A stretch of 36,187 nucleotides of DNA, taken from Bacteroidota bacterium (lineage in GTDB: Bacteria > Bacteroidota > Bacteroidia > Bacteroidales > UBA12077). Location: positions 1-36,187 of the forward strand of contig JBNJFN010000002.1 in assembly GCA_051746885.1 (NCBI GenBank). Direction: 5' to 3'. Positions 1,565-36,187 of this stretch are shown piece after piece (the stretch's first letter is position 1; each line of letters begins with the position of its first letter). The position numbers and the translations under genes are program-made. The notes beneath the pieces were generated by a model. That model saw nothing but the letters and a program-made list of their open reading frames with translations, did not search any database and had not been told where the DNA came from.

Positions 1565-4123
1565 TCATTGCAAGTTCTTCTCCGGATACATCTCCTTCCA
1601 CTGTTGCGGCTGTTCTTTCAGTTTACTGTCGAACCATGATGTGATCGTATGATGCCATTTGATGCGTTTGTCATAATCTATGATGTGGTGGTCCTGATCT
1701 TCCACCAGCACCATCTCTACATCTTTTCCCAGGATTTTCAGAGCAGCGTAATACTGTTTGCTTTCGCCCACCGGCACGTTGGTGTCGGCGGAGCCATGCA
1801 GCAGAAGGATGGAGTTGCTGAAGTCATCGGCGTTGAACAAGGGGCTGCTCTCTACATATAGGTCCTTATTGTTCCATGGATAGCTATGAGCCGATGCCAC
1901 TGAGCTGTAGGTATAACCCCAGTAGCCCTCGCCCCAGTAGCTTGATATCGAGCTGATGCCAGCATGGGCCACGGCGGTTTTGAAGATGTCCGTCTGGGTC
2001 TGAAGCATCATGGTGGTATAGCCGCCGTACGAAGCGCCGATGGCTCCGACGTTGTCTTCATCGGCTGAAGGATGAGCATCCAGGAACTTTTTCGTCCCTT
2101 CGATGATGTCGTTGAGTTGTTCCTTGCCCCAGCCATTGACGTGAAGAGCTGAGAATTCCTGTCCGTAACCTGTAGCCCCGCTGGGCTGAAGCACATACAC
2201 GATATATCCTTTTCCGGCCCAGATGTTCTTCGGATAACGTCCATCAAAGCTTCTTGAAGTAGGGGTAGTACCTCCGTAATAGTAAACGATCACGGGGTAC
2301 TCTTTATCGGAGTCATAGTTGGGCGGATAGTAAACCCTTCCGTCAATGGTCCTGCCCCTGCTGTTGGTAAAATTCCATTCCTCAGTTGGTCCGTATTGCA
2401 CGTTTGTAAGTGATTCCTGTTTGGGTTTGTCAATAAGCCGGCTCTCTTCCTCTTTCAGATTCAGTGCATAGAGATGCTCCGGCATGGTCATTCCTGTTCC
2501 GGTGTAAACGGCCTGATCTCCCTTATCCGAAAAATCTATACCACCCAGCACCTCTACTTCAAGATCAACTTGTTCGAATTCCTGGTCGTCCAGGTTGTAG
2601 TGATAAAGGCGTCCGTAATCTTTTTCCGTGACCGAAAGATAGATGCGGCTTTCAGTTATCCAATCTGCGGAGTTTACAGAAGGAGTGAATGTTTTGGTGA
2701 GGGGCTTCACATTTCCGCTTTGGAGGTTGTACAGGTAAAGCTGGTTGTCGTAGTTGTTGGGCATCATGTCATCGGATACGTTCACACCGACATCCCCGAA
2801 ACATAAAGGTCCGCCCTGGACAAGAAGCCGGTTACCGCCGGGTGAATATTCTGCCCTGCCTGAGTATCGCTTGTCTTTCCATATGGTATCCAGCGTTAGA
2901 GTTTCCATATCCATTTCATAAAGGTTCTGCCTGGAAAAAGGTACCTCCGTATAATCGGGATAGGAGGTTGAAAACAGGATCTTTTTGCTGTCGGGCCTTA
3001 TGTCATGGAGATGGGTGCTCAGGTTACCGGCAGTGATCCGCTGGGAATGACCTGAGTTTACATTTAATATGTGCAGGAATGACCGGTCGCGGAATCCGGG
3101 AATGCGATCCTCGTTGCCGTAGATTCGTTTCAGGTCGCCGGGATCATCCGCTTTTACCTGTGTCGAATATACGATATACTTTTCGTTGGGTGCCCAGGTA
3201 TAGCTGCCCATATCATCGATGTCTCCGGCTATTTTCTTTTCTTCTCCACTTTCCACATCATACACATAAAGGTTGGAGGCACCTTCGAATTCTACCGTAT
3301 ATGAGATACGGCCGGTTTTCGGGAGCCATTGCACCCTGTTGATGTCCTGATTCCGAAAAACTACCTCGTTTTTCATATCATCCAGTCTTTTCAGTACGGT
3401 ATAGCTCATATTTTTCCCCGTGCCACGGGGTGATTCCGAATAGTTGATCAGTACATACTTGCCGGAGGGGGAGATATGGGCCGAACTGATGCTCTTGCCG
3501 TCAAGAATATCGTGAATGGTTAGCTTCCTTAAAGGATCCAGGGTGTTGGTCAGGGTTAGCCCCTCAAAATCGGGGGAATGGGAAACTTTTGTGTGAAATT
3601 TAATGTTTTCATCGTCGCTTAGTAGTTTCAGGCTCACCAAGTGTTTTCCCCTGTGAAGCTGTGCGGAGTATTTCTCGTTGCTCAGTTTTCCATTTTTCTT
3701 AGTATGCTTCTGTTCGCCATCGACGCGAAGTTCAAACAAAGCATCGGTGGTTATGTTGAAATCCAGTTTCGCCCAGCGGTCCACGTCGATGTAGGAGGCC
3801 AGGTAAATCACATTTTTTCCGTCCAGGGAGGTGGCTATCAGGCTGTCACTGTCTATTGTAATTTCCTGCCACTCCATTTCTTCTTTGGACAGGTTAATAG
3901 ACCGGCCGGCTCTTGGCATGCGTTCAAAGTCCATGCGGATGCTTTCCAGCAGGTCGCTGTTGTTGAATTTTTCTCCGTCGATGTTTCCTTTTTCGGAAAA
4001 CGCGGGATTATGTATACCGGACGGTCCGGCTTTCAACCATTGATTCATGTTGATCTCCGTTTGTGCAGAGAGTGTAGTTGTCATAAGAATTAAGAGAGCC
4101 AGAAGACATGTATGTTTTCTCAT
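1565..4123 (-). CDS. S9 family serine peptidase (prolyl oligopeptidase / dipeptidyl-peptidase type) with N-terminal beta-propeller region
   Basis: 852-aa ORF with a signal peptide (MRKHTCLLALLILMTTTLSAQ). It has the GASYGGY nucleophile elbow and C-terminal HGSADTNVP and DHH segments typical of the alpha/beta-hydrolase catalytic domain. Confidence 0.85.
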   Translation of the reverse strand: MRKHTCLLALLILMTTTLSAQTEINMNQWLKAGPSGIHNPAFSEKGNIDGEKFNNSDLLESIRMDFERMPRAGRSINLSKEEMEWQEITIDSDSLIATSLDGKNVIYLASYIDVDRWAKLDFNITTDALFELRVDGEQKHTKKNGKLSNEKYSAQLHRGKHLVSLKLLSDDENIKFHTKVSHSPDFEGLTLTNTLDPLRKLTIHDILDGKSISSAHISPSGKYVLINYSESPRGTGKNMSYTVLKRLDDMKNEVVFRNQDINRVQWLPKTGRISYTVEFEGASNLYVYDVESGEEKKIAGDIDDMGSYTWAPNEKYIVYSTQVKADDPGDLKRIYGNEDRIPGFRDRSFLHILNVNSGHSQRITAGNLSTHLHDIRPDSKKILFSTSYPDYTEVPFSRQNLYEMDMETLTLDTIWKDKRYSGRAEYSPGGNRLLVQGGPLCFGDVGVNVSDDMMPNNYDNQLYLYNLQSGNVKPLTKTFTPSVNSADWITESRIYLSVTEKDYGRLYHYNLDDQEFEQVDLEVEVLGGIDFSDKGDQAVYTGTGMTMPEHLYALNLKEEESRLIDKPKQESLTNVQYGPTEEWNFTNSRGRTIDGRVYYPPNYDSDKEYPVIVYYYGGTTPTSRSFDGRYPKNIWAGKGYIVYVLQPSGATGYGQEFSALHVNGWGKEQLNDIIEGTKKFLDAHPSADEDNVGAIGASYGGYTTMMLQTQTDIFKTAVAHAGISSISSYWGEGYWGYTYSSVASAHSYPWNNKDLYVESSPLFNADDFSNSILLLHGSADTNVPVGESKQYYAALKILGKDVEMVLVEDQDHHIIDYDKRIKWHHTITSWFDSKLKEQPQQWKEMYPEKNLQ

Positions 4124-4251
4124 AAGATATAAGTTTTTTGGATTTCATGGTTAGACTGCTCCCAGTCAAAAAGGATTAAAATTAATATTATGCTCTCAAT
4201 TTACCAAATGAGGGGGTATTATTTGGGATTTGTTGCTTGGGATTTGTTATT

Positions 4252-23205: not shown

Positions 23206-23345
23206 CTCACTACTGTTCTCATCTTCTCCCTTTCTCATTTTCCCGTCTTTTCCTTTTCTCCTCTTCCCGTCTTCCTTATCTCCCCCTTTATTTCCCTTCG
23301 TTCCTTCGTGCTCTCATTCCGTCGTGCCGTCGTTCCTCAATCTCC
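23206..23345. repeat. Polypyrimidine (+ strand) / polypurine (- strand) low-complexity tract
   Basis: By hand count there are only 17 purines in the 120 nt 23221-23340. The tract contains short internal duplications (TTCCCGTCTT x2, CCTTCGT x2, CCGTCGT x2). Confidence 0.85.
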
Positions 23346-29834: not shown

Positions 29835-31247
29835 TTAGTTGTCGTAATACAGGAAGAACTCATAGGGATGAGGTCTGAGCGCAAGTTCATTCAGCTCATT
29901 TTCCTTTTTGTATTCAATATAGGTTTGAATTAAATCATCTGTAAACACATTTCCTTTGGTAAGATACTCATGGTCTTTCTCAAGAGCTTCCAGGGCTTCA
30001 TCCAGAGAGCCGGGAACTTTTGGCACTTTGGCCAGCTCCTTAGGAGCCATGGAATAGATGTCTTTATCCAAAGCATCTCCCGGGTCGATTTTGTTCTCGA
30101 TTCCGTCCAGCGTTGCCATCAGCATGGCTGTAAACATCAGATAACCATTTGCCGTTGGATCCGGGCATCGGAATTCGAAACGTTTGGACTTTGGAGATTT
30201 GGAATACATAGGTATTCTGACGGCTGCAGACCGGTTCCTCTGTGAATAAGCCAGGTTTACCGGTGCTTCAAAGCCCGGCACCAATCGCCGGTATGAATTG
30301 GTTGTGGGAGCGGCAAAAGCCAGAATGGAAGCAGCATGTTTCAGTACGCCTCCAATGCCGTAAACCGCTTCCTGAGAAAGCCCCGCATATTTATCTCCTG
30401 CAAACATCGGCTTCCCTTCTTTCCATAAGGAGAGATGGGTATGCATGCCACTTCCGTTGTCCTGGAAGATGGGCTTGGGCATGAATGTCACCGTTTTATT
30501 ATGGGTTTTGGCTACGTTTTTAACGACGTATTTAAACCACATGAACTGATCGGCCATGGTAAGCAGGTCGGCAAATTTCATATCAATTTCGGACTGTCCG
30601 CCTGTACCTACTTCGTGATGATGGGCTTCAATTACAAATCCCAGCTTCCTCAGCACGTCGACCATTTCTCCCCGCATGTCATGATAGGTATCTGTAGGAC
30701 TTACCGGGAAATAGCCTCCCTTGTAACTTGGTTTATAACCCAGGTTGGGTTCTTCAATCCGGTTGGTATTCCATGCTCCTTCATTGGAATCTATCTGATA
30801 CATGCCCAGGTTTTGTTTTTGATCGTAACGAATCTCATCAAAGATGAAAAATTCAGGTTCAGGACCAATAAAACAGGTGTCCCCTAATCCGGATTTCTTC
30901 ATATGCTCAATACCTTTTTGAGCCACATACCTCGGATCCCTCGTGTAAGGCTTCAGAGATATCGGGTCATACACATCGGCAATAACGCTTACAGTGGGCT
31001 TTGCAAAAAAAGGATCCATTTTTACGGTGGAAGGATCGGGAATGGCAACCATATCTGACATGTGAATGTTCTGCCAGCCTCTTATTGATGAACCGTCAAA
31101 CCCTACTCCTTCTTTAAAGGTGTCTTCATCCCAGGTTTCCAGAGGAAAAGTGCAATGCATCCAGGAACCCAGCAGATCGGTGAATTTGAGATCTACCATT
31201 TCAGCTCCGTTCTCTTTGGCGAAATTAAAAAACTCAGTTGGTGTCAT
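29835..31247 (-). CDS. glnA: Glutamine synthetase, type I
   Basis: 470 aa, a GSI-sized protein with a beta-grasp N-domain ([23 protein letters not shown]), the catalytic-domain motif [18 protein letters not shown] and [13 protein letters not shown]. Confidence 0.93.
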
Positions 31248-31310
31248 ACGATTTAAATTTAAATGGTTTATATAATGGCATTCTGTCGTGACTAAATAAA
31301 GTATAAAAAG

Positions 31311-31440
31311 ATTACCCCTATAATTTCAAGGGGTACTGAATGCAAAAATAAGTATTATTTTAATTAACCCCAAATAATTTTAGGGTAAAATTCAAAAATG
31401 TTTTATTTTTATTTTAATTACCCCTATTTTTATTAGGGCA
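31311..31440. promoter_or_regulatory. Three related dyads ATTA(A)CCCC[TA]A - AT-rich - [TA]AGGG upstream of glnA
   Basis: The dyads are TACCCCT-N9-AGGGGTA at 31313-31335, AACCCCA..TTAGGGT at about 31366-31386 and TACCCCTA..TTAGGG at about 31419-31438. They bracket a candidate minus-strand -7 box. Confidence 0.45.
31343..31350 (-). promoter_or_regulatory. Candidate -7 box (TATTTTTG on minus strand) for glnA
   Basis: Exact TAnnTTTG match 96-103 nt upstream of the glnA ATG. Confidence 0.3.
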
Positions 31441-31623
31441 TGGCATTAAAAAAAATAATATTTATTGCACCAATCCCTTGGAAATTTTGGTAAACTTCCA
31501 AAAGATGGTTGATAGTTTTTAGCCACCAAAACACTAAAGTAACACCAAAGCCTGTTATATGAGTTTTACATTTTTTCTTCATAAATTTTTTGGCTATACC
31601 TTGTAAATAAAAAAAAGAATGTT

Positions 31624-31662: not shown

Positions 31663-31974
31663 ATGCTAACCATCGGTGAACAAATAAGAAAATTGCGTGA
31701 GGAAAGCGGACTTCCATTAAGGAAAGTAGCAGCAGAACTGGATATTGATCAATCAATCCTGAGCAAAATAGAACGCGGTGAAAGAAAAGCCTCAAAAAAG
31801 CAAATCATTCAGATAGCTAAAATATTCAATGTACAAGAAAAAGACTTACTGATCAATTATTTGAGCGACCAGGTCTTATATGAATTAATGGACAATGAAG
31901 ATTTGGCTACGGATGCATTAAAAGTTGCAGAAAAGAAAATCAAATACAGGAATAAAACAAAAAATGAAAAATAA
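31663..31974 (+). CDS. XRE-family helix-turn-helix transcriptional regulator (possible R-M controller protein)
   Basis: 103 aa. IGEQIRKLREESGLPLRKVAAELDIDQSILSKIERGERKAS is a classic HTH_XRE (Cro/C1) motif. Its stop overlaps the start of the methyltransferase gene. Confidence 0.85.
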   Translation: MLTIGEQIRKLREESGLPLRKVAAELDIDQSILSKIERGERKASKKQIIQIAKIFNVQEKDLLINYLSDQVLYELMDNEDLATDALKVAEKKIKYRNKTKNEK

Positions 31975-33550
31975 ATTACCTGGAGCATCGTCAATCCAAG
32001 AAGAATTGCCCAGCCAATTTGCTGACCAATTGGGTGTGGAATATGCTTCTTCAGTAGATCAGTCACATAAAAAACGTAACGGTCAGTTTTTTACTCCAGT
32101 TGAGATTGCTGCTTTTATGGCTTCTCTCTCTGACTTCAATGGGGATTCCGTTCGTATACTTGATCCCGGGTGCGGTTCAGGAGTGTTATCATGTGCGTTG
32201 ATCGAAAAATTGGTGGATTCGAATAGTAATTTAAAGTATATAGAATTAGTGGGATATGAAACGGAACAAAAACTCTTTTCTACGGCCCATCAATCCTTTG
32301 AATATTTGAAAGAATGGCTGCTAGGAAATGACATCAGCATGGAGTTTAAACTTCACAATGCAGATTTCGTCCTTCATAACGCTGATGCTTTTAAAGAATC
32401 TCGCGACCTGTTCTCAAAAGAAATCGAGCCCTTTGATATAATTATTTCTAATCCCCCATATTTTAAAATCTCCATAAATGATAAAAGAACCGTTGTTTCC
32501 AAAGTCGTTATAAACGGTCATCCGAATATTTATGCCATCTTTATGGCCTTATCTGCAAAAATGCTTAAAGAAAATGGAGAATTGATCTTTATAACACCTC
32601 GCAGTTATGCAGCGGGAAATTATTTTAAACAATTTCGCACGTATTTTTTTAATTTAATTGATTTACAGAGAGCCCATTTATTCGTGTCGCGTAAAGATAC
32701 ATTTAGCCGGGATAAAGTATTACAGGAAACAGTGATTATCAAAGGTACAAGGAATACAAAACAAGAACGAAATACAAATGTAATCGTTTCTTCGTCTGGT
32801 GGATTAAAAGATTTACAGGATGCACGTTTAAAAACATTTTCCAAAAGATTTATAATCGACATTCATTCTGATGAAAAAATCTTATACTTACCTACGAGTG
32901 AGCATGAAGGAAAAATAGTGGAAGTGTTCAAAAAGTGGTCTGGCACTTTGCACAAATATAACATTAAAATTTCTACCGGTCCTGTTGTGGCTTTTCGATC
33001 CTGGGATCACATAAAAAATGAATATAATGATGATAATGAAATAGCACCCTTGTTTTGGATGCATAATGTTAAAAAAATGATATTGGAATGGCCTATCGTA
33101 AAACCCAATAAGGGCCAATATATTACAGTGAATGAAAAATCAAAATCGATTCTTATTCCCAATAAAAACTATATATTCTTAAGACGATTTAGCAGTAAGG
33201 ATGATAAAAACCGTTTAATAGCCGCTCCTTATTTTTGTAATTATATAAATTCTAATTATATAGGAGTGGAAAACAAAGTCAATTATATATATCGACCAAA
33301 CGGACATCTGGAAAGAAATGAAGTTGTTGGTTTATGTGCTTTACTGAATAGTTCTTTATTCGATGAATATTTTCGCATTTTTAACGGCAATGTTAACGTA
33401 AGCGCGACTGAATTACGGGAGATGACCTTGCCTTCTCTTGATATGATTAAAGAAATTGGAGATACAATTATTCTTTCAAATGATTTTTCAATGGCGAATA
33501 TTAATACTATTTTAGATAAATACTTCGAACCAACCATCGTACATGAGTAA
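31964..33550 (+). CDS. Type II N6-adenine DNA methyltransferase, gamma class (Eco57I / M.BsuBI-M.PstI-like)
   Basis: Motif order is GQFFTP (X), ILDPGCGSGVL (I), then IIISNPPYF (IV), with a C-terminal target-recognition region. The ATG at 31964 is preferred over the TTG at 31925. Confidence 0.85.
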   Translation: MKNKLPGASSIQEELPSQFADQLGVEYASSVDQSHKKRNGQFFTPVEIAAFMASLSDFNGDSVRILDPGCGSGVLSCALIEKLVDSNSNLKYIELVGYETEQKLFSTAHQSFEYLKEWLLGNDISMEFKLHNADFVLHNADAFKESRDLFSKEIEPFDIIISNPPYFKISINDKRTVVSKVVINGHPNIYAIFMALSAKMLKENGELIFITPRSYAAGNYFKQFRTYFFNLIDLQRAHLFVSRKDTFSRDKVLQETVIIKGTRNTKQERNTNVIVSSSGGLKDLQDARLKTFSKRFIIDIHSDEKILYLPTSEHEGKIVEVFKKWSGTLHKYNIKISTGPVVAFRSWDHIKNEYNDDNEIAPLFWMHNVKKMILEWPIVKPNKGQYITVNEKSKSILIPNKNYIFLRRFSSKDDKNRLIAAPYFCNYINSNYIGVENKVNYIYRPNGHLERNEVVGLCALLNSSLFDEYFRIFNGNVNVSATELREMTLPSLDMIKEIGDTIILSNDFSMANINTILDKYFEPTIVHE

Positions 33551-34502
33551 AAAAGAAGAAGCAAAACAGATCCTTGAGGCGTTAGGCCTCCCGAGAAGAC
33601 AACAAAATGACCGTTCTGCATTAACACTCCTTGCTTTGTGTTATTTAAGAGAAGATGACGCCTGGAATGAGGCGACTGCAAGCAGTATGTCTGTAGGAGG
33701 TAATAGGGAAAATGCCAAATACGAAGGTATAATGCGTTTTATTTCTGATAATTATAATGTGCATTATGCGGAAAATTCACGGGAGACATTCCGCCGGCAA
33801 ACGCTTCATCAATTTGTTCAGGCAGGTATAGTTGAACATAATCCGGAAAATCCTGATTTACCAACGAACAGTAAGGATAATCATTATAGGATATCCCCGG
33901 AAGCATTAAGCGTTATAAAAGCCTTTAATACAAAAAACTGGAAAACAGAAGTAAAAAAATTCAAAAAGAACATAGGTTTTTTACGCGATAAATATCAAAA
34001 AAAGAAAGATCTACATAAAATACCGGTTAATTTAAAGGAAGGAACAGAACTATCTTTTTCTCCAGGCAAGCATAACGAAGTGCAAATTGCAGTGATTGAA
34101 AAATTTGCCCCTCGTTTCGCTCCGGGAAGCGATTTGTTGTATGTGGGAGATACCGCCAAAAAAGATCTTTATTTGGATGATCAGGGACTTCAAAACTTGG
34201 GTATTCCCATTGATCAACATAGCAAATTGCCGGATATTGTTTTATATGACAAAAACCGGAATTGGTTATTTCTTATCGAGGCTGTTACCTCACATGGACC
34301 GGTTTCACCCAAAAGGCTTCTAGAACTTGAAGAAATGCTAAAAAACTGTAATGTTGGGAAGATTTATGTTTCTGCTTTCCCCGATTTTAAAGAATTTAAT
34401 CGCCACACATCTAATATTGCCTGGGAAACTGAAGTTTGGGTAGTTAGCTTTCCTGATCACATGATCCATTTCAATGGCGATAAATTTATAGGCCCGCAGT
34501 AA
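33543..34502 (+). CDS. BsuBI/PstI-family type II restriction endonuclease
   Basis: 319 aa. The N-terminal part (LGLPRRQQNDRSALTLLAL...NSRETFRRQTLHQF...NPENPDLPTNS) and the C-terminal PD-(D/E)xK-like core (LPDIVLYD...WLFLIEAVTSHGPVSPKR) resemble my recollection of this family. The ATG overlaps the methyltransferase stop (ATGAGTAA). Confidence 0.75.
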   Translation: MSKKEEAKQILEALGLPRRQQNDRSALTLLALCYLREDDAWNEATASSMSVGGNRENAKYEGIMRFISDNYNVHYAENSRETFRRQTLHQFVQAGIVEHNPENPDLPTNSKDNHYRISPEALSVIKAFNTKNWKTEVKKFKKNIGFLRDKYQKKKDLHKIPVNLKEGTELSFSPGKHNEVQIAVIEKFAPRFAPGSDLLYVGDTAKKDLYLDDQGLQNLGIPIDQHSKLPDIVLYDKNRNWLFLIEAVTSHGPVSPKRLLELEEMLKNCNVGKIYVSAFPDFKEFNRHTSNIAWETEVWVVSFPDHMIHFNGDKFIGPQ

Positions 34503-34720: not shown

Positions 34721-35203
34721 ATGGAAAATAGAGTTACCAATCCCATGCCGGAAGAAAAGTATCAGAAAATTCGAAAACTTATTGACGAATTGTATGAGGA
34801 ACTGGACACAGCAGTGGTACCCATCAGTGATGAAGATAAGAAGGAAATGCAAAAACTGGGCGCAAAAACTATGGAATTTGTCCGAAACAGCGTAAAACAT
34901 GCCAAGCTGACCCCAGAACTGGTGCCTTCCTACATCGATGTGAATGAGATGGAAAAAGATCTCATAACAACTGAGCAAATGCGGGACATCTCCCTCAGAC
35001 TGGAAAAGCTTAGTAATCTTGTTGGAGACACCTATGTACTTGCCGGCAGTGAGCTCTATGACAGCTCCCTGATTTTCTACCACAGCGTAAAGGGCGGCGT
35101 CAGGGCCAACATCCCCGGAGCAGAAGAAGCTTACGAAGATCTTAGTGTACGCTTCCCCGGCCGGCCTTCCAAAGCCAGTGAAGAGGCGGAGCCTGCAGAA
35201 TAA
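34721..35203 (+). CDS. Conserved hypothetical protein (acidic, predicted all-helical, no TM or signal)
   Basis: 160-aa ORF followed by a strong terminator. I recognise the general pattern (..KMG.K...FV...V..A...PELVPSY.D...ME.DL......L....EKL...DT..LAGSE.Y...L.FY.SVK......PGA...Y.DL..RFP) as recurring in Bacteroidota hypotheticals, but know no function for it. Confidence 0.65.
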   Translation: MENRVTNPMPEEKYQKIRKLIDELYEELDTAVVPISDEDKKEMQKLGAKTMEFVRNSVKHAKLTPELVPSYIDVNEMEKDLITTEQMRDISLRLEKLSNLVGDTYVLAGSELYDSSLIFYHSVKGGVRANIPGAEEAYEDLSVRFPGRPSKASEEAEPAE

Positions 35204-35231
35204 AATTTATAATCTGTATCTTCCGGTGGTC

Positions 35232-35280
35232 GAAAAACGTTCTTGCAGGTTTTTCAGTTTCAACCTGTAAGAGCGTTTTT
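35232..35280 (+). terminator. Intrinsic terminator of the 160-aa gene
   Basis: AAAAACGTTCTTGCAGGTT - 10 nt loop - AACCTGTAAGAGCGTTTTT forms a 19-bp stem. Its two non-Watson-Crick positions are G-U pairs only when transcribed from the + strand, and it ends in TTTTT. Confidence 0.8.
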
Positions 35281-35362
35281 CATTAATCACCGTTCCTACT
35301 TTTGGCTCCTTCGTTCAAAACTTAAACAATGTCCTGAAGCATTTTTCTTCAAAATCCGTGTT

Positions 35363-35960
35363 ACAAAAAAGTCACTCGGAGACACTTGTTAATAACCTGT
35401 CGCGAGGAAAAAGTATTTTTCAATTGACTTTTTAATTACTTCGACTCACAAAAAAGTCCTTCCAAATCCCGTGAAATTAACCTGAAACCCACTTTTAAGC
35501 AGCTTTGTTGTAGAAAGAAGTAGCCCAGAGTCACTTTTTAGTAGGTTTGAGTAAGAAAAAAGTCACTTACAATCCACAAAAAAGTCACCCAGAAACACTT
35601 TTTAATAACCTGTGGTGAGAAAAAAGTATGCTTCTACTGACTTTTTTGTCGCTTCGACTGACAAAAAAGTCACTCACAATTACTTTTAAGTAACTTATTG
35701 GAAGAAAAAAGTACCCTTCAGGTGAGTTTTTAGTCACTTCAAGTGTCTAAAAAGTCGTATCGAGGGGCGAGAAAGTCATCTGGGGTGACAAAAAAGTAAG
35801 CTAAAACTACTTTTTTGTCGGTTCAAGTAATAAAAAAATTGTGTGGACCCAGAAAAAAGTACTTCCAGGGTATTAAAAATACCTTGAAACCACAAAAAAT
35901 ACCTTCAAAGGTATTTTTAATACCTTTTGGGGAGAAAAAAATGGTTGGGAGGTATTTTTC
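35363..35960. repeat. Phased array of alternately oriented A5-6GT / ACT5-6 motifs (~21-bp spacing) with two ~212-bp higher-order copies
   Basis: About 28 motif copies were read directly. Blocks 35363-35575 and 35576-35787 align unit for unit. No ORF of 61 aa or more exists in any frame across 35204-35979. Confidence 0.85.
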
Positions 35961-35966
35961 TTATTA

Positions 35967-35991
35967 AGTTTTTTGATATTTAGCATATCTC
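35967..35991. repeat. 25-nt exact direct repeat AGTTTTTTGATATTTAGCATATCTC (copy 1 of 2)
   Basis: Identical to 36146-36170. It contains the minus-strand ATGCTAA stop/start overlap. Confidence 0.95.
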
Positions 35992-36165
35992 TTTTCCCTC
36001 TTTAGCCTCATCAATTAAGAAATCTAATTTTCCTGCACCGGAATCCTTTTTTATTTCATTATCCCATTTTTCCCAGTCCTTTTCTGCAATCCAGCGCCTC
36101 AGTTCATTAAAATCCGATTCCGGGAGCTTTTCTATTTCATTTTTGAGTTTTTTGATATTTAGCAT
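35980..36165 (-). CDS. Small (61 aa) hypothetical protein, antitoxin-like in size and charge
   Basis: MLNIKKLKNEIEKLPESDFNELRRWIAEKDWEKWDNEIKKDSGAGKLDFLIDEAKEGKEIC. This recalls a small-protein pattern (LP..E..EFR.W....D...WD..I..D...GKLD.L..EA) I remember from cyanobacteria and Bacteroidota. Its function is unknown. Confidence 0.55.
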   Translation of the reverse strand: MLNIKKLKNEIEKLPESDFNELRRWIAEKDWEKWDNEIKKDSGAGKLDFLIDEAKEGKEIC

Positions 36166-36170
36166 ATCTC
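36146..36170. repeat. 25-nt exact direct repeat (copy 2 of 2)
   Basis: Identical to 35967-35991 and located 179 bp away. Confidence 0.95.
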
Positions 36171-36187
36171 ACCTTCCTTTTTGGATT
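36159..36187 (-). CDS. 3' end of an upstream paralogous small gene (..SKKEGEIC*), truncated by the window edge
   Basis: The minus-strand frame reads S K K E G E I C stop, with the TAA at 36159-36161 overlapping the next ATG. The C-terminus mirrors ..AKEGKEIC* of the 61-aa ORF. Confidence 0.45.

Follow-up and report, generated by a model that had tools for sequence, protein, structure and literature searches.

In the 36,187-nt stretch of DNA analysed here (the window), a gene for a 160-aa protein (34721..35203, + strand) is followed by a terminator-like hairpin and then, at 35363-35965, by about 600 bp of non-coding hierarchical repeat made of ~28 short motifs. The gene, the terminator and the array, whose period is 21 bp, form a conserved pair that is apparently undescribed; our literature search found no description of such a gene-hairpin-array module. 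We propose that the array is a cis-acting, helically phased double-stranded DNA element on which the neighbouring protein assembles, a reading that we favour while placing it a little short of an even chance.

In 35204-35979 the mechanical ORF listing shows just two frames, 35585-35737 (-) and 35815-35967 (+), each of 50 aa; none attains 61 aa, as the initial annotation had stated. Along the array, A6GT and ACT5 motifs alternate, and with them the orientation of the units. AAAAAAGT occurs 11 times in the window, nine of these within 35365-35853, and allowing one mismatch brings the number of motif sites in the array to 27. Motifs are spaced 19-20 bp forward-to-reverse and 23 bp reverse-to-forward, in agreement with the distances first given for them. 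The two motifs had also been described as complements, which is not exact (gaGAAAAAAGT versus cACTTTTTA). Spacers of either kind show partial dyad symmetry, with a fraction of complementary positions of 0.40-0.42 compared to 0.25 in shuffled sequences.

TRF and autocorrelation place the periods of the array at 21.3, 42.5 and 85 bp, 21.3 bp being the basic one. Autocorrelation of base identity over 35340-35965 gave peaks at lags 21 (z 5.9), 42 (z 6.8), 43 (z 5.8) and 64 (z 4.8) and, at longer range, 85 (z 8.8), 106 (z 5.8), 149 (z 6.5) and 213 (z 7.9). The control consisted of 500 dinucleotide-preserving shuffles, in which the per-shuffle maximum averaged z 2.9 and never exceeded 5.4; the peaks at 21, 42 and 213 bp, which the initial annotation had expected (the last at 212), thus stand well above shuffled background. 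TRF reported periods of 107, 85 and 41. The strongest super-period is 85 bp because two unit subtypes alternate. In addition, a repeat search aligned 35363-35481 with 35576-35694 at 78% identity and an offset of 213 bp. Block alignment and autocorrelation together establish that this AT-rich region (GC 0.38) is, as had been claimed, a hierarchical repeat and not merely AT-rich.

The locus can be divided into successive parts. The hairpin at 35232..35281, identified by inverted-repeat search and inspection of the sequence, has 20-nt arms that are 90% complementary, a 10-nt loop and A5/T5 flanks. Read from either strand it resembles a terminator, and it lies between gene and array; a consensus terminator scan missed it because its loop is longer than 8 nt. 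The hairpin is kept in the related metagenome loci L157, L152, L169, L174 and L175. Between it and the first full unit lies a conserved leader (35282..35362), in which alignment of the window with L157, L152 and L143 shows many invariant columns, and which contains degenerate unit-like sequence (ACTTTTGG at 35298 and GCATTTTTCTT at 35339). A 14-nt direct repeat (35336-35349 / 35949-35962) marks a partial unit at each border of the array. The array itself begins with an extra super-unit of 85-86 bp, one A-type plus one B-type unit (35363..35449), found in the window lineage only and missing from all five orthologous arrays. The main body (35450..35852), delimited by repeat search, autocorrelation and alignment with orthologues, consists of 42-43-bp units of the form gaGAAAAAAGT, N11-12, cACTTTTTa, N16, with A and B subtypes alternating. 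The last ~110 bp (35853..35965) are terminal units with a 41-bp period (TRF, 41 x 1.9), whose palindromes, AAAATACC / GGTATTTT, differ from that of the main body. Inverted repeats in this part include a perfect 17-nt arm pair. It is nearly invariant across six lineages and is the best-conserved part of the array. Units of the same type, RTACYTC-N3-GARGTAY, make up the array at L172, next to a 57%-identical homologue of the protein.

Orthologous arrays were found in five related Bacteroidota metagenome lineages (L143, L152, L157, L169 and L174), all matching the main body unit for unit. Pairwise array identity among the six lineages is 74-80%, and every unit of every orthologue retains the same 8-mers. 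A comparison of the window with L143 gives 93% identity at motif positions and 74.5% in spacers; glnA, at 92.8% amino-acid identity, reaches 46% at its four-fold sites. The alignments thus establish that the array is under purifying selection, since both motifs and spacers are better conserved than glnA synonymous sites. Orthologous arrays differ in length by 22, 42, 64 or 86 bp; as these indels are multiples of 21.3 bp, phase is kept.

Phase with the DNA helix was established by a tract-phase test. The 28 A/T tracts of the window array are phased to a helical repeat of 10.6 bp (R = 0.70, p < 0.002). Twelve arrays were examined in this way: L181 and L182 have too few tracts, nine of the ten testable arrays gave a helical repeat of 10.5-10.7 bp (R = 0.70-0.93, p < 0.002), and L179 gave p = 0.098. 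A-runs and T-runs are used interchangeably in the arrays, an exchange that is equivalent for the bending of a duplex and not for an RNA. A wedge model predicts 9.5-12.7 degrees per turn versus ~5.5 in shuffles, and an end-to-end/contour ratio of 0.22 for the window array versus 0.80 in shuffles, every other 600-bp stretch of the window having a ratio of at least 0.58. The wedge parameters follow Bolshoy et al. 1991, and these magnitudes are approximate. Taken together, wedge model and phase test agree with the earlier expectation of strongly curved DNA. The arrays of L181 and L182 carry no A-tracts and no predicted curvature, and keep the 21-bp period.

The array is linked to the gene well beyond the closest relatives. 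Every locus of the protein family that is readable downstream carries a repeat array, 15-160 bp past the stop codon, and in most of them a terminator-like hairpin stands in between. The distant loci L172, L178, L182 and L184 have a hairpin of their own with a T-tract, and L183 a hairpin without one. The genes flanking the module differ at nearly every locus. This linkage is established on about a dozen independent loci, a small sample given the more than 2,000 clusters of the family; most members lie on contigs of 1-2 kb, since the arrays interrupt assembly. Only one further array of four or more copies with a period of 20-23 bp was seen in ~80 kb of surrounding sequence (L181, 4070-4154). We compared periods between the window and six lineages with family proteins that share 26-57% identity with that of the window. 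The unit sequence is lineage-specific and the period is always 21-21.5 bp: TRF/autocorrelation gave top lags of 85 for L172, 21 / 42 for L178 (22.6 copies), 21 / 43 for L181, 21 for L182, 21 / 63 for L184 and 42 / 63 for L179. Units are near-identical and without spacers in L178, L181 and L182, and those of L178 are 97% identical to each other. AGGTA/TACCT is common in four of the seven lineages, which is only suggestive of a shared core motif.

The initial annotation had raised the question whether the array has the 160-aa or the 61-aa gene beside it in every case. The tie to the 160-aa family is tight and there is none to the 61-aa gene: a link to the 61-aa, HTH or R-M genes was rejected as all of them are missing from the orthologous loci, and, on this comparison of sequences, they are lineage-specific insertions. 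Three loci (L143, L152 and L073) have an array without the 160-aa gene, and tblastn found no remnant of the gene at these gene-less loci; the protein either acts in trans or is dispensable. The array of L073, from the same metagenome-assembled genome (MAG) as L143, is shorter, carries the window motif and lies between pdxH and a 950-aa gene. In most readable loci (window, L157, L169, L172, L178, L179 and L182) the array sits between convergent genes, the next called gene beyond it being encoded on the other strand. A scan for sigma-70-type promoter-like sites, a search type that does not cover Bacteroidota promoters, gave none in or beside the array.

The 160-aa protein belongs to a large, uncharacterised family with no Pfam or structural match. 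It has no match in Pfam, NCBIfam, PHROG or PADLOC. At E<=1e-3 a profile search returned 2263 clusters, and at E<=1e-10 it returned 935; the proteins are uniformly ~150-175 aa long. An AF2 model built with 120 sequences (pLDDT 91.8) is made entirely of helices, with a long one at 74-128; a model with only seven sequences was unusable (pLDDT 55.7). Foldseek of the model against PDB and BFVD, and the sequence profile against PDB, gave no match and thus no recognisable DNA-binding fold. The family is mildly acidic (median pI 5.6; pI 4.8 and net charge -11 for the window copy). There is little variation in its most conserved helix, although array sequences are entirely different from one another, a point that counts against binding of the array by the protein. 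The full family alignment offers no stretch that is conserved well enough for a search of viral contigs; a narrower one matched 21 stretches, none of which was confirmed as a family member.

How could such a protein and such an array work together? In the reading that we favour, protein binding and any cellular role of the array are what we infer. The array would offer ~28 recognition motifs, one per two helical turns (21.3 bp) and therefore all on one face of the helix, in DNA pre-bent by the phased A/T tracts. The module has two parts, with the gene for the helical protein first, then the terminator-like hairpin and the array. The 160-aa protein, or an oligomer formed through its 55-residue helix, may bind the sites cooperatively and wrap or condense the ~600 bp into one nucleoprotein body, by analogy with iteron clusters that titrate Rep or with sopC/parC centromeres coated by their binding proteins. 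The array might serve as a landmark or anchor in the chromosome, titrate the protein or mediate its autoregulation, or act as a supercoil-domain element. Conserved 8-mers without covarying stems point to sequence recognition rather than pairing. Against a protein-DNA complex count the acidity of the protein and its lack of a recognisable DNA-binding fold, which leave nucleic-acid binding putative on the model, as well as the arrays without gene, the two uncurved arrays and the palindromic units that can fold as RNA.

Two known types of multi-site array come close to this picture. Iterons of theta plasmids lie downstream of rep in P1 incA and F incC and are spaced by 22 bp in RK2 and R6K; clusters have 5-10 or more sites, act by titration or handcuffing and are specific in sequence to each replicon. 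Like them, the present array has a period of two helical turns (21-22 bp) and sits just 3′ of the gene of its presumed partner: motifs in the window recur every 21.3 bp, and in the six other lineages the highest autocorrelation lags fall on multiples of 21-21.5 bp. In contrast to iterons, it has no Rep-type winged-helix protein, its units alternate in orientation in the window lineage and its context is not a plasmid. A replication origin was rejected, since no TTATCCACA-like DnaA box (up to one mismatch) was found in 35200-36000. The second type is the plasmid centromere. F sopC is 12 x 43 bp with an inverted repeat in each unit, and sopC, R1 parC and the pSK41 centromere are thought to be cooperatively coated into a curved or solenoidal nucleoprotein complex. 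They share with the array tandem units of ~42-43 bp (or another multiple of the helical turn) with a dyad, and an adjoining gene for a small (here presumed) binding protein; here each 42-43-bp unit carries an A6GT ... ACT5 dyad. Unlike these centromeres, the array is chromosomal, occupies one locus across species and lies downstream of its gene behind a terminator. No ParA, ParM or TubZ NTPase gene or ParB/RHH gene was found among the scanned neighbours in the window and 14 related loci, and the 160-aa protein has no ParB or RHH match. The layout had been likened at the outset to iteron or centromere arrays or to a multi-hairpin RNA: helical-phase spacing and unit dyads agree with the former, and covariation gives no support to the latter.

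The strongest rival is an RNA. The array might be transcribed, and the repeat RNA, either whole as a scaffold or sponge or cut to 21- or 42-nt units, might partner the 160-aa protein; we regard this as unlikely, though as a serious contender. A gene with an adjoining repeat array is also the layout of type III toxin-antitoxin loci (ToxIN, CptIN, TenpIN), which are ordered repeats, terminator, toxin gene, with 2-6 units. The module resembles them in its tandem, lineage-specific repeats separated by an intrinsic terminator from a gene of ~160-170 aa. ToxN-type RNases cut A-rich sites, and A6 is a conserved motif here. Terminator and array, however, follow the gene, the reverse of the ToxIN order, with 6-28 units, and the protein is all-helical and without likeness to ToxN; no toxin-antitoxin match was found for it in PADLOC or Pfam.

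A gene next to short alternating repeats is likewise the TIGR-Tas layout, with two alternating repeats of 8-12 nt and short spacers beside the gene of a small helical protein (PMC12045711). TIGR arrays have 5-15 units, and their repeat is constant within a locus and different between loci (PMC12045711). Their unit, however, is 36 nt with hypervariable 9-nt (or 9-12-nt) spacers, and a Nop domain is characteristic of the Tas protein (Faure et al. 2025; PMC12045711). Two alternating 8-nt motifs occur in the present array as well, but its unit is 42-43 bp, with spacers of 11-12 and 16 nt that are conserved between species (74.5%); as these spacers are diverged copies of each other and shared between species, they are not guide-like. 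No Nop domain was detected in the window protein or in 10 family representatives, and Foldseek against Nop5, Prp31 and TasR structures gave no match (PDB copy to April 2026).

Folding gives a mixed answer on RNA. The palindromic units yield MFE z-scores of -3.6 to -15, the strand opposite the gene is the better folder in eight of 11 arrays, markedly in L178, L181 and L182, and G-U to G-C changes are present in the terminal hairpins. On the other side, the window array folds alike on both strands (-163.5 versus -162.9 kcal/mol), and folding energies of the two strands give no consistent answer as to which would be transcribed. No supporting covariation was found in the six orthologous arrays: the RNAalifold covariation term is positive (+5.4 kcal/mol), 6 of 107 pairs show a compensatory double change, and most are invariant A-U pairs, stems being invariant rather than compensating. 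Rfam gave no match over the whole window at gathering thresholds; the best sub-threshold hit in 35000-36187 is a plant miRNA model at 28 bits, versus a cut-off of 74 bits. Finally, a period of two helical turns, A/T interchange and indels of 21.3-bp multiples are unexpected for RNA units.

The array could also be structural DNA that works independently of the neighbouring protein, as the apex or boundary of a supercoil domain, an insulator of transcription where genes converge or a landing pad for a general nucleoid protein; its linkage would then reflect a requirement of the gene in cis or shared ancestry. Strong predicted curvature in most arrays, their position between convergent genes in most readable loci, the conservation of arrays at L143 and L152 where the 160-aa gene is missing and the lack of a DNA-binding signature in the protein all fit this idea. 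We nevertheless find it distinctly improbable. L181 and L182 keep the 21-bp period without A-tracts or curvature, it is specific 8-mers and not tracts alone that are 93% conserved, and a generic element is unlikely to track one gene family across 26-57% protein identity. Bent DNA of the kinetoplast-minicircle type has A-tracts in phase, one per turn. Tracts are similarly helix-phased here, with planar or superhelical curvature predicted, but there is one per two turns, the non-tract GT / AC and ATACC are conserved, and two arrays of the family have no tracts at all.

Much less probable still is a selfish or passively expanding repeat of 3′ intergenic regions, either REP/BIME-like or a MITE with an internal minisatellite. 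BIME units alternate in orientation, as do those of the array. Furthermore, lineages differ in their number of units, the array interrupts assemblies, and the MAG of L143 has, at the unrelated locus L073, another and shorter array with this motif. MITEs of Bacteroidales with internal tandem repeats of 23 and 41 nt are documented (PMC4596501). The array shares with REP/BIME and Porphyromonas MITEs the intergenic position at gene 3′ ends, palindromic alternating units of two subtypes, a variable copy number and the breaking of assemblies. It differs from them in being strongly and position-specifically conserved and tied to one gene family: its position relative to the gene is constant across deep divergence, and orthologues match unit for unit and evolve far more slowly than synonymous sites. 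There is no sign of high copy number (the window and the L143 and L073 contigs of one MAG were compared). REP/BIME elements are GC-rich palindromes of 35-40 bp that number hundreds per genome and go with a RAYT transposase; the present units are AT-rich, the 36-kb window has a single array and none of the 10 window ORFs scanned is RAYT-like. No terminal inverted repeats were found at the borders of the array, nor target duplications. A BrickBuilt MITE was rejected (the 23-mer has 0 matches in the window at up to three mismatches), as was an IS5-type MITE, whose inverted repeat gives two chance-level matches elsewhere in the window. BLASTN of the array in distant mode against plasmid and phage collections matched nothing. 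With no Rfam, plasmid, phage, BrickBuilt or IS5-type match, the array was not assigned to any known element family, in line with the initial annotation. CRISPR, with its identical 25-40-bp repeats and unique spacers, was also rejected, since conserved cores are 7-8 bp, spacers are paralogous and shared by orthologues, and there is no cas gene.

A decayed gene or a chance low-complexity AT-rich spacer, suggested by base composition and by the ORFs that a gene caller put over the arrays of L170 and L178, can be set aside, as all ORFs are shorter than 61 aa, the 42/43 alternation breaks reading frames, no homologous locus was found in which a gene takes the place of the array, and periodicity is far above that of shuffles.

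In its widest form, the protein-DNA reading describes an undescribed chromosomal system, widespread mainly in Bacteroidota, in which a small all-helical protein of a new fold and the co-diversifying array downstream of its gene, with 6-28 sites exactly two helical turns apart, form a dedicated curved nucleoprotein body. We consider this possible but rather doubtful; such a system would amount to a bacterial equivalent of satellite or centromere-like landmarks, or to a protein-DNA switch that titrates itself. If the linkage holds family-wide, gene and array represent a new class of gene-plus-repeat-array module, noticed in the same way as CRISPR, type III toxin-antitoxin and TIGR arrays. Its signature is unlike theirs, the helical period (21.3 bp) being conserved and not the repeat sequence. 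The linkage would also provide a first functional context for an unannotated family that counts more than 2,000 protein clusters, and the array, if the reading is true, a natural case of bacterial chromosomal DNA that is intrinsically curved over a long stretch and under selection. The module may have stayed undescribed because its arrays break assemblies. To put assembly of the protein on the array to a direct test, a single protein and a 600-bp fragment would suffice.

A pattern scan for the motifs gave 25 stretches in viral contigs and at least 119 in species genomes, almost all single chance matches in AT-rich DNA; among the matches listed, only L143 and L073 are related arrays. Giant-virus and phage contigs (L013, L017 and L028) contain perfect tandem arrays of A6GT/ACT5, and a Spirochaetales MAG (L058, L096) has a mini-element of four motifs; both were rejected as relatives, being probably convergent.

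As the initial annotation had stated, 35204-35979 is free of ORFs that reach 61 aa; the only mechanical ORFs are two of 50 aa each. The A6GT / ACT5 array (35363-35965) carries 27 sites, one mismatch allowed, spaced by 19-20 bp from forward to reverse and by 23 bp from reverse to forward (~19 and ~23 bp in that annotation), and nine of the 11 copies of AAAAAAGT in the window fall within 35365-35853. Autocorrelation of 35340-35965 gave peaks at 21, 42/43, 64, 85, 106, 149 and 213 bp (z 4.8 to 8.8), compared to 500 dinucleotide-preserving shuffles whose top z of all was 5.4 and whose per-shuffle maxima averaged 2.9. Periods of 41, 85 and 107 bp were recovered by TRF and repeat search, the latter also giving a block offset by 213 bp at 78% identity. 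Both the 21-, 42- and ~212-bp periodicity and the higher-order block repeat first proposed are confirmed, and the original description is correct with some refinements. The basic unit is ~21.3 bp with alternating orientation; both spacer classes show partial dyad symmetry (0.40-0.42 vs 0.25); because two unit subtypes alternate, the dominant super-period is 85 bp; and over the final ~110 bp the palindrome changes to AAAATACC / GGTATTTT.

Five other lineages yielded orthologous arrays in pattern scans and contig look-ups (L143, a Bacteroidales MAG; L152; L157 and L175; L169 and L170; L174). Aligned unit by unit, the arrays show 74-80% pairwise identity, and their lengths differ by 22, 42, 64 and 86 bp, each an integer multiple of 21.3 bp. 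Compared with L143, the window array is 93% identical at motif positions and 74.5% in spacers, whereas the adjacent glnA, whose protein is 92.8% identical, retains only 46% at four-fold degenerate sites. Since the array is so much better conserved than these sites, purifying selection acts on it, spacers included. In the MAG of L143, this motif forms a further array, a shorter one, at another locus (L073). In L152 (300-350), L169 (10205-10250) and L174 (4035-4085), though not in L143, the array is bordered distally by an inserted GC-rich hairpin, CGACGCTTCGGGG ... CCCGAAGGTCG, which resembles a small insertion of REP or MITE type.

Whether the array always accompanies the 160-aa gene (34721-35203, unannotated) or the 61-aa gene had been asked initially. 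In L143 and L152 it lies between a TPM gene and glnA, with no restriction-modification (R-M) genes, 61-aa gene or 160-aa gene. The 61-aa association therefore does not hold, and the R-M cassette and 61-aa gene, missing there, are, as judged from these loci, insertions unrelated to the array. The 160-aa association holds in one direction: despite these gene-less arrays, an array stands 3′ of the gene at every family locus with readable downstream sequence. An indexed search gave only eight close relatives of the protein, and all close-relative loci looked up have an array just 3′ of the family gene; next to a 57%-identical homologue (L172) it consists of 21-bp palindromes, RTACYTC-N3-GARGTAY. 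Searching 1.84 billion representative proteins with a profile retrieved 2263 clusters at E<=1e-3, of which 935 reach E<=1e-10; almost all measure 150-175 aa, and no Pfam or NCBIfam match was found in the family. Six distant members (26-41% identical) were read in their contigs, five with readable downstream sequence: most have a hairpin, followed in each by a repeat array, of 22.6 x 21 bp, or 11.3 x 42 bp with 97% identity (L178), 9.7 x 21-bp palindromes ACACCTCAGGTGT (L181), 5.6 x 21 bp (L182), periods of 21 and 63 bp (L184), or a looser set of repeats whose autocorrelation is significant at 42 and 63 bp (L179). The sixth contig (L183) stops 71 bp past the family gene, just beyond a hairpin. 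Unit sequences are unrelated from lineage to lineage and the period is 21-21.5 bp in every one; AGGTA/TACCT, recurrent in four of seven lineages, is only suggestive of a common core. Because flanking genes differ at nearly every locus and ~80 kb of surrounding sequence contain a single further array of four copies or more with a period of 20-23 bp, the probability that gene and array became neighbours by chance in six or more independent lineages is negligible. Many family members were found on 1-2-kb contigs, as expected if arrays break assemblies, and the window array is itself a break point of short-read assemblies. The analysis shows an array under selection and in helical phase, in most cases with predicted curvature, whose position is fixed behind one gene family and after a terminator, here a hairpin with 20-nt arms found by inverted-repeat search (35232-35281). 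A literature search found no description of this gene-array module, which is apparently undescribed. L181 has a small second array (4070-4154; 22 bp x 3.9, GACAGGATTTTTCCTCTAAGTC), 2 kb 5′ of its family gene.

We weigh a duplex-DNA role of the array over an RNA role, and tentatively read it, at a little under even confidence, as phased DNA bound by protein, a plausible mechanism. A- and T-tracts are interchangeable and phased to 10.5-10.7 bp (R 0.70-0.93, p < 0.002 in nine of 10 arrays whose tract number allowed a test, from 12 examined). With wedge parameters after Bolshoy et al. 1991, and with magnitudes that are approximate, predicted curvature is 9.5-12.7 degrees per turn vs ~5.5 in shuffles, and the end-to-end/contour ratio of the window array is 0.22 vs 0.80, all other 600-bp stretches of the window giving at least 0.58. 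The strongly curved DNA proposed initially is backed by this prediction, and the interpretation as a whole is supported and extended. The terminator-like hairpin between gene and array also counts for DNA. That the array acts as RNA we consider less likely: all arrays would fold well (z -3.6 to -15), eight of 11 better by the strand opposite the family gene, but the same 8-mers are retained everywhere without compensatory change in the stems, and a period held at two helical turns despite sequence turnover, with A/T tracts swapped freely and indels in phase, points to DNA.

As the DNA reading would have it, the 160-aa protein oligomerises on array sites along one DNA face and forms one complex in which ~600 bp are wrapped, while arrays lacking the gene are bound in trans; the array might then serve as landmark or anchor, titrate the protein or act as a topological element. 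The AF2 model (120-sequence alignment) is confident and all-helical (pLDDT 91.8; helices 11-28, 37-42, 48-63, 74-128, 134-144), and basic positions 40, 45, 49, 56, 124, 128 and 144 are conserved. Binding is suggested by linkage and not by fold, since Foldseek found no match in PDB and BFVD (best E ~1), a profile search of PDB sequences gave nothing and the family has a mildly acidic median pI (5.6).

Iteron clusters such as P1 incA and F incC, together with the plasmid centromere sopC (43 bp x 12), would be the closest working analogies; as assignments they fail, Rep protein and ParA/ParB respectively being absent. A gene-plus-array layout is shared with TIGR loci (PMC12045711) and type III TA loci; TIGR fails for want of a Nop protein and of guide-like spacers, ToxIN for want of ToxN and for gene order. 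The array fits no known element family, as first noted: searches found no Rfam match, plasmid or phage similarity, BrickBuilt repeat (consensus from PMC4596501) or IS5-type terminal repeat, and the array has neither DnaA boxes nor inverted terminal repeats.

The leftmost neighbour listed is glnA (29835-31247, - strand). Upstream of it (~31300-31470), three TACCCC-N8-12-GGGGTA palindromes, kept in L143 and L152, are candidate regulator binding sites. The low-GC insert that follows encodes an HTH controller (31663) and two enzymes, the Eco57I-like methyltransferase at 31925-33550 and the BsuBI/PstI-type endonuclease at 33543-34502. This R-M system (31663-34502) lies immediately 5′ of the 160-aa gene, as does another BsuBI/PstI-type system in L183 (434-2900), where the family protein shares just 28% identity; a hotspot for insertions or a link in function could be involved. 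To the right of the array lies the 61-aa gene (- strand) and, past the window end as read in L005, TPM-domain and LemA genes. An exact 24-nt duplicate, GTTTTTTGATATTTAGCATATCTC on the + strand, occurs at 35968-35991 and 36147-36170: one copy corresponds to the start codon of the 61-aa gene and the bases just upstream, and the other sits on the stop codon of this gene, right where it meets the array. The duplicate may be the footprint of an insertion or duplication of the gene.

Elsewhere in the window, a 23-bp GC-rich palindromic unit, CCCGCCTGTCCCAGTCGGGCAGG, forms three perfect tandem copies (1489-1558). Pyrimidine-rich tandem repeats of 8, 16 and 24 bp (23216-23337, e.g. TCGTTCCGTCGTGCCC) closely resemble repeats adjoining the array locus in L169 (10230-10700) and form another repeat family of this lineage. 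Perfect A6GT / ACT5 tandem arrays on giant-virus and phage contigs, probably convergent, were seen in L013 (6047-6410), L017 (11180-11300 and 11540-11680, two arrays in inverted orientation that flank a short segment) and L028 (3150-3330, 42-bp period). On at least three contigs of a Spirochaetales rumen MAG (L058 430-505, L096 3003-3080, L128) there is a mini-element of four motifs, TATACTTTTTT-N14-AAAAAAGTATA-N8-TTACTTTTTA-N15-GAAAAAAGTATAT; an equal motif count was obtained for several metagenome contigs (JAEEG*), and the family includes one protein (P0009) from a Spirochaetota MAG.
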